Source of the DNA: an uncultured Candidatus Saccharibacteria bacterium
Lineage (GTDB): Bacteria; Patescibacteriota; Minisyncoccia; Portnoybacterales; UBA2143
Direction: 5' to 3'
Assembly (NCBI GenBank): GCA_964594155.1
Contig: CAZQLH010000004.1
Coordinates: 1-57,642, forward strand
DNA length: 57,642 nt
A program made the position numbers and the translations under genes. Of this stretch, positions 7,588 to 50,214 are shown piece by piece; position 1 is the first letter of the stretch, and every line of letters starts with the position of its first letter. Below the pieces are notes generated by a model. It was not told the DNA's origin, made no database searches, and saw only the letters and a list, made by a program, of their open reading frames with translations.

Positions 7588-7616
7588 TTGACAAACCATT
7601 ATTTATTTGCTAATAT
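7588..7616 (+). promoter_or_regulatory. Sigma70 promoter of rnpB
   Basis: TTGACA (7588-7593), 17 bp, TAATAT (7611-7616) with TGn extension; predicted start matches the P1 5' end. Confidence 0.75.
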
Positions 7617-7622
7617 AGGGAT

Positions 7623-8016
7623 ACCCAAGTAAGTTAGATAGTCGCCTTGATTATATCAGGGAGGAAAGTCCGGGCACCGTGACCCGCCTTTGCGCTACGC
7701 GCTACGGCGAGGTGAAAAAAGACAGTGGGTAACTCCCACCGTTCGTGAGAATAGGGAAAGTGCCACAGAAACAATGTTTCTTCTTTATTAGGGGTAATCT
7801 CCTAAAGAGAGGTAAAAGTGAAAAGTGAGGGCCTAAGAATCCTCTTCCCGCAAGGAAACTTGTCGGGATGGTAAACCCTGTCTGGTGCAAGAGCAAAGTG
7901 TGGCTCGCTTGATCCCGACGGTAACGTCGGGGCTAGATAAATGACTATCTTTACCCGCCTTCGCGCTTCGCGCTACGGCGTGGTGAAACAGAACCCGGCT
8001 TATTGCTTGCTTGGGT
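7623..8016 (+). ncRNA. rnpB: RNase P RNA
   Basis: GAGGAAAGTCCGGGC, AGTGCCACAGAAA, GGTAAACCC...GCAAG and ACAGAACCCGGCTTA conserved blocks; P1 ACCCAAGTAAG/CTTGCTTGGGT; P2 AGATAGTCG/TGACTATCT. Confidence 0.95.
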
Positions 8017-8038
8017 TTTTTATATTAAGATAAAGAAA

Positions 8039-42008: not shown

Positions 42009-42195
42009 ATTGCTAAAATTATTAAAGCGAAGAATGTTTTTTATTGCTTTTCTGCTTTTGTTTTAATCATACTGCGTTTGAGCTCTATTTTATTTTTCTC
42101 AGGACACATAAAATATCCTTAACATCTTTGCGGCTAATGATATTACAAATTATCCTATCAAAATGTTTAACTATGCACCCGTCAGGTACACAAGG

Positions 42196-42242
42196 TTGAC
42201 AGCGGATTTGGGATAATATAGAATAATAATGTTCTTTGAAAA
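42196..42242 (+). promoter_or_regulatory. rRNA promoter and boxA-like element
   Basis: TTGACA, 17 bp, TAGAAT (42219-42224); TGTTCTTTGAAAA at about 42230-42242. Confidence 0.7.
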
Positions 42243-42524
42243 TAGAATAAGAAATTAAACAATTGCAATTTTGTGCAGTTGTCCCAAATTATTTTTATTG
42301 AGAGTTTGATCCTAGCTCAGGATGAACGCTGGCGACGTGGATAAGGCATGCAAGTCGAACGACCCCGAGTTTATCGAGGGGTAGTGGCGAACGGGTTAGT
42401 AATACGTAGGGATCTACCCTGAAGTCTGGAATAACTTGGAGAAATCTAAGTTAATACCAGATAGTCCCGCAAGGGTAAAGTTCCCCGCAATACTGCGGGG
42501 TTGCGCTTCAGGAGGAACCTGCGC

Positions 42525-42564
<40 letters not shown>

Positions 42565-42790
42565 TGACGGGTAGGGGGAGTGAGAGCTTGACCCCCAACA
42601 ATGGGACTTAGACAAGGCCCATACACCTACGGGTGGCAGCAGTCAAGAACCTTCCACAATGGGCGAAAGCCTGATGGAGCGACGTCGCGTGAATGAAGAC
42701 GCTCTTCGGAGTGTAAAATTCTTTTCTAGAGGAACAATTTTGGCTTGCCAAAATGAGCGTACTTTAGGAATAAGGGGCGGCTAACTTCGT

Positions 42791-43710
42791 GCATTGGCGC
42801 GACCTCTGACGGTAACGTCAGAGAGAGAATCTAGTGCTAAGCTCGCACTAGAGAGAAACTCGGCTTATATGCTGGAACCCATTTATTTGATATTTAAAAT
42901 AAATGGCAATCAGCAGGGAAGTCGTTTATAATGGAAGTATGAGATCGTTAAATACAAATCTAATTTCTAAAACCCAACAAAAGATTATTATTGGTAATAT
43001 CTTAGGAGATGGGTCTTTAGAATTTAATGGATTTCGTGGAACACGATTACAGATAAAACAATCATTGAGATATAAAGAATATGTATTTTGGTTGTATGAT
43101 CAATTAAAAGACCTTTGTATTTCTAGTCCAAAACAGAGAAAAGACAATGATCAATGGTACTTTAGTACAAAATATTTAGCAGAATTAACTATTCTTCATA
43201 GAATTTTCTATCCTAATGGTAAAAAAGTAATTCCTAAAGATATTTCGAAATTACTTATTTCACCACTAACTTTGGCAATTTGGTATATGGACGATGGTTC
43301 ATTATACTGGCGGCCAAAAGAACATAATGGTTTTAGATTATGTACTAATTGTTTTTCTGTAAAAGACACACATCGATTAAAAAATGTTTTATATGATAAT
43401 TTTGGCATAGAATCTACAGTTCAAAGAACTTCATGTAGAGGCAAAAATTATCCTAGAATATATATTGGAGTAGCAGGTAGAAATAAATTTTTGAAAGTTA
43501 TCAAATCATATATATTAAACTGTTTTTCTCATAAATTACCTCCATTATAAATTGACCCTTCAGAGACTGATCCCTTTTATGGGAGAGATAATGGGTTCTG
43601 GATAATCCAGGTTTAAACCATTATCACACGCCGAGCCCCCGTTAAATATTTTTATATTTAATTGGGTGGTGATATAGTCCAGTAGAATTTTATATTATTG
43701 AATTCTATTA
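42791..43710 (+). mobile_element. Group I intron after 16S U516 (920 nt)
   Basis: P1 CGUGC/GCGCG with U-G pair, P10 with GCCA, AATCAGCAGGG, CAGAGACT and GATATAGTCC; exons rejoin as TTCGT|GCCAG. Confidence 0.9.
42939..43550 (+). CDS. Intron-encoded LAGLIDADG endonuclease (two motifs)
   Basis: IIGNILGDGSL and LAIWYMDDGS; ATG 42939 is 6 nt after a TATAAT. Confidence 0.9.
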   Translation: MRSLNTNLISKTQQKIIIGNILGDGSLEFNGFRGTRLQIKQSLRYKEYVFWLYDQLKDLCISSPKQRKDNDQWYFSTKYLAELTILHRIFYPNGKKVIPKDISKLLISPLTLAIWYMDDGSLYWRPKEHNGFRLCTNCFSVKDTHRLKNVLYDNFGIESTVQRTSCRGKNYPRIYIGVAGRNKFLKVIKSYILNCFSHKLPPL

Positions 43711-44083
43711 GCCAGAAGCCTCGGTAATACGAAGGCCCCAAGCGTTATCCGGATTTATTGGGCGTAAAGCGTGTGTAGGCGGTTTTAATAGTGATTGGTT
43801 AAATTCCGAAGCTCAACTTCGGAGCTGCTAGTCAAACGTTAAAACTAGAGCAAGTAAGAGGCTAATGGAACTTACCAAGTAGGGGTGAAATCCGTTGATA
43901 TGGTAGGGAACACCAAAGGCGAAGGCAATTAGCTGGTACTTAGCTGACGCTGAGACACGAAAGCGTAGGTAGCGAACGGGATTAGATACCCCGGTAGTCT
44001 ACGCCGTAAACGATGTCAACTAGCCGTTTGGAGTATCGACCCTCTGAGTGGCGAAGCTAACGCGTTAAGTTGACCGCCTGGGA

Positions 44084-44115
<32 letters not shown>

Positions 44116-44582
44116 AGACGGGGACTTGCACAAGCGGTGGATCATGTGGTTTAATTCGACATTACGCGAGGAACCTTACCAGGACTAGACATCCTGATGA
44201 CCGTTTACCGAAAGGTAGACTTTCTTTAGACATCAGGGTCAGGTGGTGCACGGTTGCCGTCAGCATGTGCCTTGAGGTGCTCCCTTAAATGGGTTAACAT
44301 GCGCAACCCTCGCCCTGTGTTACAAGTGTCACAGGGAACTGCCTCCGGACAGGAGGAGGAAGGCGAGGACGACGTCAAATCAGCGTGTCCCTAGATGTCC
44401 TGGGCGACACACATGATACAATGGTTAGGACAATGGGTTGCCAAACCGCAAGGTGGAGCCAATCCCATCAAACCTAGCCCCAGTTCGGATTGAGGGCTGC
44501 AACTCGCCCTCATGAAGCCGGAATCGCTAGTAATCGCAGATCAGCCACGCTGCGGTGAATACGTTCTCAAGTCTTGTACTCA

Positions 44583-45404
44583 AAAATAAATGTGCCTGGC
44601 AGCTATTATAATGCTAAATTGTTAAAATCAATTCCTCCAATATTTATTGGAGCGTAGCGAACAGACAGGTCTCGCACCGCGAGGTAGAGACTGAAGGGTC
44701 TTAGTAGCAAAAGACAGCCCTGTCATTAAAAGGATTCTTACGACCTATACGGTGAGTTATAGGGAAGTAAGCATAGTTAATAATCCGATAGGGATGCCCG
44801 GAATAGTATAAATAGTGACCCAGGGAGATCTTTGTGATATAATAGAGTTATGTTATGAAGTCACAAAGAAGTCAGCTGCGTCGTAGTAGCTCTAATTCGT
44901 TAGAGCGAAGGACAAAACCGACGGTCTCTCTAGATTATATTGTTGGTCTTACAGATGGCGAAGGATGTTTTTATGTTTGTATTAGACCGCCATACAATAA
45001 GAATGGCGGAGCAATGATTTTACTTTCGTTTTATATCAAGATGCAAGCAAAAGATAAATTTCTTTTAGAGAAGGTTAAAAATACGCTTGATTGTGGAAAT
45101 GTGTATTTCCAGAATGAAAAGCGTCCAAATCATACTCAATGTTATCGCTATACAGTTGCTTCGCATCGTGATATCTTAGGAAAGGTTATTCCATTTTTTA
45201 AGAAATATCCTTTACAAAGTACGAAAGTAAAAAACTTTAATATTTTTTGTAGTATTGCTGAAATGGTTCGCAATGGCGAACATCATAATCAAAAGGGAAT
45301 TGAAAAGATTAGATTATTAAAATCTAAAATGAATCGTCGGGCTCGCTGAGTGCGGGAAATCCGCTCGCTCAGTGGGGATTCGAAAGAACTCTACTTATCG
45401 AAAT
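44583..45404 (+). mobile_element. Group II intron after 16S A1398 (822 nt)
   Basis: Domain V CGCTGAGTGCGG-GAAA-TCCGCTCGCTCAGTG, DVI-like end in AT, GTGCC near the 5' end, EBS loop CGGTGAGT complementary to the spliced junction ACTCA|CCG. Confidence 0.8.
44855..45349 (+). CDS. Single-motif LAGLIDADG endonuclease in group II intron domain IV
   Basis: YIVGLTDGEGCF, F.I.M...D..LL..VK..L.CG.V, VIPFF.KYPL...K...F..F; stop codon lies inside domain V. Confidence 0.9.
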   Translation: MKSQRSQLRRSSSNSLERRTKPTVSLDYIVGLTDGEGCFYVCIRPPYNKNGGAMILLSFYIKMQAKDKFLLEKVKNTLDCGNVYFQNEKRPNHTQCYRYTVASHRDILGKVIPFFKKYPLQSTKVKNFNIFCSIAEMVRNGEHHNQKGIEKIRLLKSKMNRRAR

Positions 45405-46787: not shown

Positions 46788-48983
46788 AGTTTAATAGGGC
46801 AATTAGGATAGTTTTTTGACAATTAGGAAAAGTAGTTTTTCCGTCAATAGTAAAATTGGAAAAGTAATTTGTCTAAATTTTTAGTGGTAAAATTTAGACG
46901 GATAAATATTAAGGGCCTGTGACGGATGCCTTGACATAAAGAGCCGATGAAGGACGTGGTGTGACTGCGATAAGCCTCGGGAAGGTGTCTAACAACCTTT
47001 GATCCGGGGATGTCCGAATGGGGAAACCTAATTTTGCGATAAACAAAATTAGCCTGGTCGAATGACTGGGCAGGGAACTCGGGGAAGTGAAACATCTCAG
47101 TACCCGGAGGAAAAGAAAATAAGTCCCGACGTAAAGTCGGGAAATATTCCCTAAGTAGCGGCGAGCGAAAAGGGAAAAGCCCAAACTTATTTTATTTAAT
47201 TTATTAAGTAAGATGAGGGTTGCAAGGTAGTAACGCTCTGAAGCGTCCCTTGGTTGCTTTAAAGTAACTAAAGGATGTCTCAGAAGAAGTTTATTAAATA
47301 AAGGCTGGTTAATTGAATCTTGCTGGAAAGCAGAACCAAAGAGGGTAATAGTCCCGTAAGTGAAAATTCCTTTATGCTTCTAGTTATTATTCTTAAGTAC
47401 CTCGGGACCAGACTATCCCGTGGGAAGCTGGCAGTCCTATGCTGCCAAGGCTAAATACTCTTTATGATCGATAGCGCACCAGTACCGTGAGGGAAAGGTG
47501 AAAAGTAGCCCGTTGAGGGCGGTGAAATAGAACCTGAAATCATGGGCCTACAAAGAGTCGGAGCCCCGATTACGCTTGCGTAATCGTGGGTGACGGCGTG
47601 CTTTTTGCAGAACGAGCCAACGAGTGTATGTAAACGGCTTGTTTAAGTCCGTTAAGGACGGAGACATAGTGAAAGCGAGGATTAATAGTCCGTCCCGACT
47701 TTACGTCGGGGTAGTCGTTTGTATACGACCCGAAGCCAGAGCGAGCTAACCATGGCCAGGATGAAATCTCGACGAAAGTCGGATGGAGGTCCGCACCCAC
47801 TAACTGTGCAACGTTAGGGGATGAGCTGTGGTTAGAAGTGAAAAGCTAATCGAGCCTGGTAATAGCTGGTTCTTCCCGAAATAGCTTTAGGGTTAGCTCT
47901 CTGTTAATGTCTTAGGGGGTAGAGCACTGGATGGGATATGGATGGGTTCGTCCCGCCTATCTCAATCAAACTCCGAATACCTATAATTTCTGCGAAGGAG
48001 TCAGACTGTGGGGGCTAAGCTCCATGGTCAAAAGGGAAACAGCCCAGACTGTCGTCTAAGGTCCCTAAATCAAACTAAGTGGGAAAGGAAGTGAAGTTTC
48101 TCTGACAGCTAGGAGGTTGGCTTAGAAGCAGCCATCCTTTAAAGAGTGCGTAACAGCTCACTAGTTCAGAGATTTTGCGCCGAAGATTTAACGGGGCTAA
48201 AGTTTGATACCGAAGACACAGCTGTCCATCTTTTAGATGGGCGGGGTAGGGAAGCGTTCTCTAATGCGTTGAAGTCCACGACGTGAGTCGGGATGGAGTT
48301 TAGAGAAGTGAGAATGTTGGCATAAGTAACCACAAATCCGGTGAGATACCGGATCGCCGAAAACCCAAGGTTTCCTTGGCAATGAACATCAGCCAAGGGT
48401 TAGGCGGGCCTAAGTTGCGGCCGCGATAAGCGGTCAGTAGCGATGGACAGACGGTTAATATTCCGTCCCCTCAGTATTTTTTCGATGAAAGGACGAGGTT
48501 TAGTAGCTTGAGCGTCTTATTGGATTGTCGTTCTTGGCTTAAGAGCGCTGGTTAGGCAAATCCGGCCAGCATCAACTCAAGAGTTGAGAAAAGGTTTTTC
48601 TACGGAATAACCAATTCAAGTGAGCAGGCCTCCAAGAAAAGTTTCTAGAGTTAAGGATATTGAGTCCGTACCGTAAACCGACACAGGTGGGTAGGTCGAG
48701 TAGACCAAGGCGAACGAGTGATTCCTTGTGAAGGAACTCGGCAAAACAGCGGGTGTAACTTCGGGATAAACCCTGCCATTATCACTTGTGATATTGGCCG
48801 CAGCGAAAGATTCCTGACGACTGTTTATCAAAAACACAGCTCCCTGCTAACTCGCAAGAGGATGTATAGGGGGTGACGCCTGACCAATGCTAGAAGGTTA
48901 ACGTTTGACGTCTTTCTCTTCGGAGTTAGGCGAAAGGCCGAAGCCCTAGTGAATGTCAGCGATAACTATAATCGTTCTAAGGT

Positions 48984-49207
48984 GAATTAGTTGCCTTAGT
49001 AAAATTCGGCTATATGCTGGAATAGCTGTGTATCTTGAGCTACTCATAATATGAGTAACAATGCTACAAGTGCAGCCAATCAGCAGGGAAGTCTTAGTGA
49101 CCCCTCAGAGACTACACGCCGAACTCTGTAATATTACAGGGAAGATATAGTCCGATCTTTATAGCGATATAAAGAAGTCTTGAGCGAATCAAGACGATAA
49201 CAGCTTG
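48984..49207 (+). mobile_element. Group I intron after 23S U1931 (224 nt, no ORF)
   Basis: P1 AAGGU/GCCUU, AATCAGCAGGG, CAGAGACT, AAGATATAGTCC, terminal G; exons rejoin as CTAAGGT|AGCGAAA. Confidence 0.9.
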
Positions 49208-49227
49208 AGCGAAATTCCTTGGCTGGT

Positions 49228-49477
49228 GAGAAATTTGCCAGGCTAGAAAGTGATTTCTAGTAAAAATTCAACTTATAACGGTGAATTCTATATGGTATAA
49301 TATAGATAATACCGTGGGAAGTTTGATAAAATATCAAACCCCGTAACGACTTAGTTAACTTAGTTGACTAGACGATAGGGAATACAGAAATGTTTAAACT
49401 ATCGTAATACGTTGACTCTTACTTGATAAGTAAGATGAAGATATAGTCTATGCCATTAGTAATAATGGAGTGATATG
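49228..49477 (+). mobile_element. Group I intron after 23S U1951 (250 nt, no ORF)
   Basis: P1 CUGGU/GCCAG, ACCGTGGGAAG, CCGTAACGACT, AAGATATAGTCT, terminal G; GCTGGT|AAGTTC. Confidence 0.9.
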
Positions 49478-49969
49478 AAGTTCAGTCCTGCACGAATGGC
49501 GTCACGATCGGGAAACTGTCTCCACAAGGAGCTCGGTGAAAATGCAGTGGGGGTGAAGATGCCCTCTACTTGCGGCAAGACGGAAAGACCCCGGAAGCTT
49601 TACTACAGGTTCTCATTGGGGTTTTGTTTTAGATGCGTAGCATAGCGGGGAGGCTTTGAAGCTTGTTTTTCGGAATGAGTGGAGCCGCCAGTGAAATACC
49701 CGTCTTTTAAAATAATGCTTCTAATCCTGATTTTACTTTGGGAAACAGTGGGTGCTGGGTAGTTTGAGTGGGGCGCTCGCCTCGTAAAAGGTAACCGAGG
49801 CGCTTAAAGGTCAGCTAGGTCCGGATGGAAATCGGACTGGTCGTGTAAAGGCACAAGCTGGCTTTACTGCAAGACGGACATGTCGCGCAGTTGCGAAAGC
49901 AGAACTTAATGAACTGATGGTGGGTTATAGAACCGCCAGAGATTAACGGATAAAAGTTACTCCGGGGAT

Positions 49970-50214
49970 AACAAACGTTGTCCCGAGATGAAAGTAATTT
50001 CATTTCTAGTACACAGCTAATAACGGTGGAGGTTGTTTAATACAATTAATACCGTGGGAAGTCTTCGTGACCCCGTAACGACTGAGTCGCTTTAAGCGAC
50101 GAAATAAAAGGTTCCTGATAATCAGGGATATAAAAACTTTTATTATACGCTGTGCTCCGCATTTAAGCGGATGAAGATATAGTCTGCTCTAATAGCAATA
50201 TTAAGATTAAAGTG
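49970..50214 (+). mobile_element. Group I intron after 23S U2449 (245 nt, no ORF)
   Basis: P1 GGGAU/GUCCC, same core blocks, terminal G; GGGGAT|AACAGG. Confidence 0.9.

Follow-up and report, generated by a model that had tools for sequence, protein, structure and literature searches.

Does an RNase P RNA gene in which the same hairpin stands at two separate places owe the pair to a dispersed repeat that has settled in tolerant parts of the ribozyme, or to an event within the gene itself? The question is raised by rnpB in the window (the whole stretch of 57,642 nt analysed here), where a pattern search with a 36-mer (ACCCGCCTTYGCGCTWCGCGCTACGGCGWGGTGAAA) gives exactly two matches, both inside the gene and on the plus strand (Table 1), and where the same pattern has 0 matches in 100 dinucleotide shuffles of the window. 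The source genome (G000), of the Patescibacteria (CPR), is a metagenome bin of 629 kb in 20 contigs, 100% complete and with 32.8% G+C. In a preliminary description made from the sequence of the window, the pair, together with a third hairpin, had been read as repeat elements that colonised tolerant loops of the ribozyme and act there as peripheral helices.

Architecture of rnpB and of its two hairpins

The locus holds a full-length bacterial type-A RNase P RNA gene, matched by RF00010 over model positions 1-367 with 178.3 bits against a gathering score of 100. The conserved P4 strands (GAGGAAAGUCCGGGC and ACAGAACCCGGCUUA) are found at 7661-7675 and 7988-8002, the type-A feature P18 is present with a GNRA-type loop, and the rest of the RNA is also type A, with P13 and P14 present and P10.1 and P15.1 absent. 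The P6 pseudoknot with P16/P17 was not found in the cmscan alignment of rnpB, in which 3 nt stand in place of 39 model positions, and a hairpin occupies the place of the P6 strand at J5/7. Losses of the P6/P16/P17 type are reportedly common in RNase P RNAs of the CPR, and diverged CPR RNAs without P13, P14, P16, and P17 have been reported in a text that makes no mention of P5.1 or P19 (PMC8172020). The P7 pairing was missed by the Rfam alignment, and relatives keep (G/A)(G/A)CAG with a complementary CTG(C/T)C(T/C). RnpA is encoded in the source genome as a 139-aa frame.

Table 1. Positions of rnpB features, of copies matched by the covariance model R1 in the source genome, and of module copies in rnpB genes of Patescibacteria (window coordinates without prefix; other positions carry their contig or locus label)
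Feature	Position	Strand	Basis or remark
Promoter-like −35 TTGACA (7588-7593) and −10 TAATAT (7611-7616), 17-nt spacer	7588-7616	+	read from sequence
rnpB, bacterial type-A RNase P RNA	7626-8017	+	RF00010 match
P4 5' strand (GAGGAAAGTCCGGGC) and P5 5' strand (GCACC, 7674-7678)	7661-7678	+	cmscan alignment
Hairpin module copy 1, J5/7 (P5.1-like site); hairpin proper 7682-7713, then tail GAAA	7682-7717	+	pattern, fold, 47.3 bits to R1; with copy 2 top-scoring in G000
P7 5' strand AGACAG, pairs with CTGTCT at 7878-7883	7720-7725	+	read by eye
P7 3' strand CTGTCT (7878-7883) and P5 3' strand GGTGC (7884-7888)	7878-7888	+	
P15 region without P16/P17 hairpin	7889-7912	+	cmscan alignment
Helix P18, GGUAAC loop	7913-7932	+	RF00010 alignment, high posterior
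P2 3' strand GACTATC	7943-7949	+	cmscan alignment
Hairpin module copy 2, J2/4 (P19 site); hairpin proper 7953-7984	7953-7988	+	pattern, fold, 50.0 bits to R1
P4 3' strand (ACAGAACCCGGCTTA), P1 3' strand, and T-run (terminator-like end)	7988-8023	+	
R1 copy beyond a TATAAT box and the stop codon of a 607-aa frame; the AU-rich hairpin (CGC...GCG) behind it ends exactly at tRNA-Ile +1	C2:79546-79580		
R1 copy before tmRNA, same arrangement as at tRNA-Ile (AU-rich hairpin up to +1)	C6:30565-30596	−	
R1 copy abutting the tRNA-Ser 3' end	C2:51009-51049		antisense orientation
R1 copies upstream of protein genes	C2:4453-4487, C1:120482-120513, C13:4007-4038		
R1 copy, ninth of G000	C3:42758-42788		
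rnpB of G471: module in a branch of P12			
rnpB of G574: module in P12 and in an expanded P3	L186		
rnpB of G007 and G008: module in an expanded P3	L278:156-290 (G007), L252 (G008)		
rnpB of G494: module in a ~170-nt four-hairpin array at J5/7	L211:507-665		
rnpB of G021: module at P19			
rnpB of G000: module at J5/7 and P19; rnpB of G001: module at J5/7			

Copy 1 follows GGGCACC (P4/P5) and precedes P7, so that it lies in the J5/7 junction, which is the P5.1 site in type-B RNAs and the site of the 5' strand of the P6 pseudoknot in type-A RNAs, and copy 2 lies between the 3' strands of P2 and P4, which is the P19 position. Pattern search and the Rfam alignment thus agree with the preliminary description on the existence of the two copies, on their identity at 33 of 36 positions, and on both placements. 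The third hairpin that it had called foreign (CCCGAC-GGTAAC-GTCGGG at 7914-7931) is indeed there, and it is the canonical P18, with the consensus GGUAAC loop and the same sequence in three other genomes (G013, G039, and G040). The copies differ at an internal-loop base (T/C at 7691/7962), at the middle base of the apical triloop (A/T at 7697/7968), and at the bulged base (A/T at 7710/7981), all of which are unpaired in the predicted fold, and every paired position is identical between them. Each copy is predicted to form a singly bulged outer stem of 7 bp, a 3x3 internal loop, an inner stem of 4 bp (GCGC/GCGC), and a triloop, with folding energies in 50-nt contexts of -17.5 kcal/mol for copy 1 and -19.6 kcal/mol for copy 2. 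A kissing-loop contact between the copies was considered and rejected, as the apical triloops are too small and G001 has one copy only; a K-turn or tandem G.A motif at the base of the hairpin was also discarded by eye, the sequence being off consensus.

A dispersed hairpin family and its candidate mobilisers

In the module to which both copies conform, a one-base bulge interrupts the outer stem ACCCGCC/GGCG(N)GGU. A 3x3 internal loop (UNC/UNC) separates this stem from an inner one of 4 bp, which is closed by a UNC triloop, and the hairpin is followed by a short A-rich tail; internal loop and triloop together give three UNC triplets with 7-nt spacing. The core of the module, GCCTTNGCGCTNCGCGCTACGGC, which has 21 specified bases, was searched across species genomes and is found in more than 120 contigs at least, from Acidobacteriota, Alphaproteobacteria (including Bradyrhizobium isolates), cyanobacteria, Planctomycetota, Bacteroidota, and others. 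Aligned copies have sharp borders at -3 and about +32, beyond which the flanks are unconserved, and their consensus reads YCC GCC TTC GCGC TNC GCGC TAC GGC G(N)GG CA(A/G)GC; copy 2 of the window is identical to this cross-phylum consensus over 27-30 nt, including the position of the bulge. Five GC-rich genomes of unrelated bacteria hold 70, 31, 25, 8, and 5 copies, with 0 matches to a reversed control pattern, and the copies in them stand alone, form tandem arrays, or make up inverted pairs, and are present in both orientations. Rfam contains no family for the module, and literature string searches with the core sequence and its spurious peptide returned no match.

Compensatory changes are observed at the sequence level in several sets of copies. 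For example, an even sample of 400 Patescibacteria genomes contains seven two-mismatch matches besides the own copies, of which five have a compensatory inner-stem pair (GCCC/GGGC, GCTC/GAGC) and one has its two internal-loop strands swapped; similarly, all four two-mismatch matches in one Bradyrhizobium are compensatory, and no selection for pairing entered either count. In an alignment of 44 sequences, the outer pair of columns 4-28, which was not used in selection, is CG in 31, AU in six, UA in two, UG in one, and unpaired in four, and the proposed structure is better than all slid registers; the inner-stem counts of this alignment are circular, since it was restricted to matches whose inner stems can pair; the relaxed pattern itself had matched about as often as the reversed control. 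At the centre of the internal loop there is no covariation (TTC/TAC, TAC/TTC, TAC/TAC, and TTC/TTC are all found), which indicates a real loop with a conserved U..C on both strands. The covariance model R1 detects nine copies in the source genome and 0-12 in each of 26 relatives, with copy 2 as the best match across the 27 genomes. Judged from these comparisons of sequence, the structural repeat family is real.

In the 629 kb of the source genome, an exact or near-exact 36-mer (≤3 mismatches) was found nowhere outside rnpB, and the two rnpB copies share a GCGC inner stem and a TGAA tail (not CAAG) that the other family members of the genome are without, as well as the outer stem ACCC/GGU and the bulge position. 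Four copies of the genome have the ACCCGCC/GGCG(A or U)GG outer stem also seen in rnpB, and the other members have different inner stems (GCCC/GGGC) or are short forms; recent transposition within this genome is therefore not supported.

Candidate mobilisers were sought among resident genes. A RAYT is encoded in the source genome by a 231-aa frame at C2:6057-6752 (NF047646, 84.6 bits against a cut-off of 80), within a region (C2:5448-6752, L277) where its flanks belong to a different palindrome family, AAGGACGT/AAGGAACGTCCTT, with 22 strand-hits at ~11 loci of the genome. As the gene is flanked by another repeat, it was rejected as the mobiliser of the rnpB hairpin; among relatives, the presence of a RAYT has no correlation with module number, and a PDB sequence search with the RAYT gave nothing at E≤0.001. 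The source genome has no gene of PF05635 (four-helix-bundle, 23S rRNA IVS protein), and with an HMM built from CPR sequences only, such a gene was found at one of 120 GC-rich module loci, 7 kb away. Relatives carry up to seven PF05635 genes per genome (L279-L298), which lie in inverted arms of AT-rich 7-8-nt tandem repeats without a GC core, and several of these genes directly adjoin tRNA genes; a link between the module and cassettes with a PF05635 gene found no support in these samples.

Helix sites in relatives and copies at tRNA and tmRNA gene ends

The comparison with relatives covered 30 rnpB genes of the family and order, in 28 of which J5/7 is readable. A hairpin of some kind stands at J5/7 in 19 of these 28 genes and at P19 in 20 of the 30, and both helices are therefore old in this order. 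The helix sequences at the two sites are variable, and many have the form UCCGCC-tetraloop-GGCGGA, which occupies both sites in G002 and one site in G004, G013, and G023, and which is also found at the P16/17 site in G005, G015, G023, and G024. The same long hairpin as in the source genome is carried at J5/7 by G001, a member of the same genus, and by the independent metagenome contig L154, where U-A replaces one C-G pair of the outer stem as a compensatory change, and the P19 of both is an unrelated AT-rich hairpin. In G021, which belongs to another genus of the same family, P19 is a hairpin of the same architecture (ACCC UCC GUC GCCC UUU GGGC UAU GGC GGGU). The rnpB genes of G000 and G001 have a core that is ~95% identical and wholesale changes in P12, P16/17, P18, and P19, with a hairpin in G001 at the P16/P17 site where G000 has none. 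The P18 stem is GC-rich (CCCGACGGUAACGUCGGG) in G000, G013, G039, and G040 and AU-rich in G001 and G009; its difference within one genus, around so similar a core, suggests helix swapping or recombination between rnpB alleles.

In Patescibacteria at large, 10 module copies are found in rnpB genes of eight genomes, at five kinds of site and in sense orientation in 10 of 10 cases (Table 1), and when counted by site and lineage these copies represent at least five independent events. The gene makes up ~0.06% of the genomes but accounts for 5-6 of 96 R1 matches among the matches listed. Multi-hairpin insertions lower Rfam scores and shorten or lose rnpB calls in Patescibacteria: Rfam matches begin too late in G007, G008, and G574, and G494 falls below the threshold. 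The reading of the preliminary description, that repeats had colonised tolerant loops of rnpB, is therefore only partly supported. By the measure which that description had itself set, namely the genome-wide number of the 36-mer and the helices of relatives at the same places, it fails for the exact 36-mer, which lies only in rnpB of a lineage where most relatives have helices at both sites, and it survives at the level of the structural family, which is dispersed, recurs in peripheral helices of rnpB in several Patescibacteria, and occupies many intergenic places. Both sites do tolerate extra helices, as the description had supposed, and the mobility and functional helix role that it had added are putative.

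Copies of the family also stand at the ends of other stable-RNA genes. In addition to the copies before tRNA-Ile and tmRNA in the source genome (Table 1), a short form (UCCGCC-AGA-GGCGGA) followed by the identical AU hairpin precedes tRNA-Ala. The tmRNA leaders of G001, G007, and G015 carry the module, that of G005 carries it as a short form, and the copy of G007 (CCCGCCTTCGCGCTACGCGCTTCGGCGAGG) comes very close to those in rnpB of the source genome. In Alphaproteobacteria and in G393 of the Patescibacteria, the first base of the element directly follows the encoded CCA of tRNA genes, with UGG pairing with CCA.

Several further features were observed at these genes. One and the same AU-rich leader hairpin of 44 nt (CGCUAAAUUUAUU...AAUAAAUUUGCG; C2:79581-79618 and 81217-81257) precedes tRNA-Ile and tRNA-Ala and reaches exactly to the mature 5' end, and tmRNA has an analogous AU-rich leader hairpin; RNase P substrates do not usually have a leader that is fully paired up to -1. 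In G013, G016, and G029 (L255, L257, and L270), the module is antisense to tRNA-Gly and overlaps its first 6 nt, its outer stem ACCCGC/GCGGGU being the acceptor stem of tRNA-Gly, and this arrangement is conserved across two families. A boxB/boxA-like antitermination signal was also considered, as some copies have the tail UGCUCAAAUUU, but was rejected, because the boxA-like TGTTCTTTGAAAA of the 16S leader is without the module; in the window, this TGTTCTTTGAAAA lies within 42190-42240, directly after a TTGACA/TAATAT promoter and upstream of the 16S rRNA gene. That gene (42302-44638) gives two Rfam matches (42302-42817 and 43577-44638) split by ~760 nt of inserted sequence, and a match to group II intron domains D1-D4 follows just after it (44834-44913). 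The 23S rRNA gene (46899-50008) contains a group I intron at 48905-49174 (RF00028, 83.9 bits) and several long helix expansions in the Rfam alignment.

Origin of the pair and meaning for the ribozyme

The two 36-mers are probably copies of one REP-like, GC-rich palindromic hairpin module seated in two tolerant peripheral helices of rnpB. The module would fill a P5.1-like helix in J5/7 and P19 in J2/4 of an otherwise ordinary type-A RNA. Both junctions branch off the P2/P4/P5 core, and most relatives, like type-B RNAs, have extra helices there, so that the catalytic core would be undisturbed. The hairpins would be transcribed as part of the ribozyme; the organism being AT-rich and its rnpB without P16/P17 and the P6 pseudoknot, their most likely use would be that of stable helical extensions. 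The helices at both sites are older than the module, so that 'insertion' may mean the replacement of a helix tip. From their shared GCGC inner stem and TGAA tail, the two copies are more closely related to each other than to any other member in the genome, and one therefore most likely came from the other, or both from one source copy; the pair most likely arose in a hairpin-precise copy or gene-conversion event within rnpB. The loops of copy 2 (TTC, TTC, TAC) equal the cross-phylum consensus and copy 1 shares TTT and TAC with G001, so that a recent duplication from P5.1 to P19 would need three later changes, all in copy 2; in addition, the module-type P19 already present in G021 counts against a simple recent duplication in that direction.

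An intragenic event might even suffice by itself: a P5.1-like helix and P19 would both be ancestral, the tip of one would have been copied onto the other by duplication or gene conversion, and likeness elsewhere would reflect a pool of GC-rich stable-RNA hairpins exchanged by recombination, with no mobile element. The restriction of the exact 36-mer to rnpB of the source genome agrees with this, as do the helices at both sites in most relatives, often with the UCCGCC/GGCGGA stem and a tetraloop (both sites in G002, one in G004, G013, and G023), the derived TGAA tail and ACCC/GGU stem shared by the copies, and the swaps of whole helices between G000 and G001. However, 27-30 nt of copy 2 equal the consensus of a repeat that genomes of unrelated phyla carry in 5-70 copies, and the module at four other kinds of rnpB site in other families and at the flanks of tRNA and tmRNA genes is left unexplained by a local duplication, which makes an account without a dispersed element rather unlikely.

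The hairpin could alternatively be bound by a putative partner, protein or RNA, which would recognise the module in the flanks of RNase P substrates as well; selection for this binding would then have kept the copies. Such a partner would fit the modules that in the source genome precede tRNA-Ile and tmRNA (and, as a short form, tRNA-Ala) and are followed by an AU-rich hairpin up to +1, the RNase P cleavage site, the tmRNA leaders of G001, G007, G015, and G005, among which the G007 copy is near-identical to those in rnpB, and the copies that start exactly after the tRNA CCA in Alphaproteobacteria and G393. The conservation of loops across phyla over covarying stems and the sense orientation of 10 of 10 rnpB copies would fit as well, and RNase P RNA-binding proteins besides RnpA do exist (YlxR/RnpM, PMC11622646). 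Many copies, however, lie in 5'UTRs or in plain intergenic DNA, some are antisense to the adjoining tRNA (the tRNA-Ser trailer of the source genome and the tRNA-Gly leaders of G013, G016, and G029), many relatives have rnpB genes and tmRNA leaders without the module, and the GC-rich genomes hold both orientations and tandem arrays, like selfish repeats; selection for a binding partner is accordingly quite an improbable reason for the pair. In a more far-reaching form, to which a still slighter chance is given, the hairpin would be a shared recognition module of the tRNA-processing system that marks the RNase P ribozyme as well as the leaders and trailers of its substrates (tRNA-Ile, tRNA-Ala, and tmRNA here, and tRNA 3' ends in other phyla). 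If this were true, one factor or a direct RNA-RNA contact would link the enzyme to its substrates or set the sequence of 5' and 3' processing, and the conservation of the loops from Patescibacteria to Acidobacteriota together with stem covariation would be explained.

Transcript and read-level contigs bear on the integrity of the locus. In two metatranscriptome runs of one study, contigs covering 7623-7883 and 7653-7878 contain copy 1 with no gap and at most one difference, DNA carry-over being possible, and the start of one of them at 7623 is close to the predicted start of rnpB; these contigs leave 7884-8017 uncovered, and hence copy 2 is outside the RNA comparison. Logan contigs from DNA runs of two studies, whose samples may be the source of the assembly, hold both copies with 0 differences. 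Contigs that skip 7680-7717 or 7897-7988 occur in the same samples and were rejected as a polymorphism of this rnpB, since at a likeness of 90-95% they represent the rnpB of other organisms. A metagenome mis-join that placed the same GC-rich piece twice, conceivable in a bin of 20 contigs, has a very small probability, given that the copies differ at three positions and each sits at a structurally sensible junction, that both are reproduced in unitig-level contigs from several runs of the two studies, with copy 1 in RNA contigs as well, and that the first site holds the same hairpin in G001 and in a metagenome contig of independent origin.

The copies of the hairpin module in rnpB have partial parallels among known repeats. 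Rickettsia palindromic elements (RPE) have been described inside tmRNA and RNase P (M1) RNA genes (Ogata et al., 2002, as cited in PMC2229807). Like the present module, an RPE is a dispersed palindrome inside an essential stable-RNA gene, apparently tolerated and also found in intergenic places and other genes; RPE are 105-146 bp long and Rickettsia-specific, whereas the module is ~36 nt long, crosses phyla, and occurs twice in one rnpB and in five different rnpB helices across Patescibacteria. In heterocyst-forming cyanobacteria, STRR heptamer repeats have been described in P12 of rnpB (Vioque, 1997, NAR 25:3471, cited in PMC2858038). They share with the module the condition of a genome-wide short repeat within a peripheral helix of RNase P RNA, and the hairpin has a 7-nt periodicity of its own (TNCGSSC x3). 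The STRRs are reportedly tandem arrays that lengthen P12, unlike the module, which is a discrete self-complementary unit at J5/7 and J2/4. REP-type palindromes form cross-phylum super-families with compensatory sub-families and can be located within genes or small palindromes (PMC3733652). Similarly to REP/REPIN and other GTAG/CGTC-tagged palindromes (PMC3733652, PMC3116915), the module is an imperfect, GC-rich palindrome of 20-40 nt whose inner GC stem-loop is set off by unpaired di- or trinucleotides; it is dispersed as single copies, in tandem, or as inverted pairs, is divided into compensatory sub-families, and is occasionally placed within genes or small palindromes; it is also a short dispersed palindrome of mostly extragenic position, with only ~9 copies in the source genome. 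Unlike REP, it has no GTAG/CGTC tag outside its stem (the only GTAG lies within the hairpin, on its other strand) and has a conserved tail CA(A/G)GC, and unlike in a REPtron, the resident RAYT is flanked by another palindrome and not by the module. The classical helix table lists P5.1 for type B only (PMC2858038). The helices described here resemble P5.1 and P19 of type-B (Bacillus-type) RNAs in lying at the same junctions, J5/7 and J2/4, of an RNA without P6/P16/P17, a likeness of position only; unlike type B, the RNA is otherwise type A and the helices are filled by a repeat module, with no homology implied.

Palindromic repeats inside RNase P RNA genes were therefore already known from Rickettsia and cyanobacteria. 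What is new is a cross-phylum element of ~36 nt that is not in Rfam and is present in two copies in one ribozyme, together with its recurrence at five rnpB helices in Patescibacteria and its position at tRNA and tmRNA genes, exactly at their ends. As the family is absent from Rfam, has conserved loops with covarying stems, and is strikingly associated with the exact ends of tRNA, tmRNA, and rnpB genes, it is a candidate for a new RNA motif or a small mobile element. RNase P RNA is the classic model of a ribozyme core that tolerates and uses peripheral helices, and with the module in two helices here and in three further helices in relatives, the periphery of this ribozyme has apparently been built from a reusable cassette.
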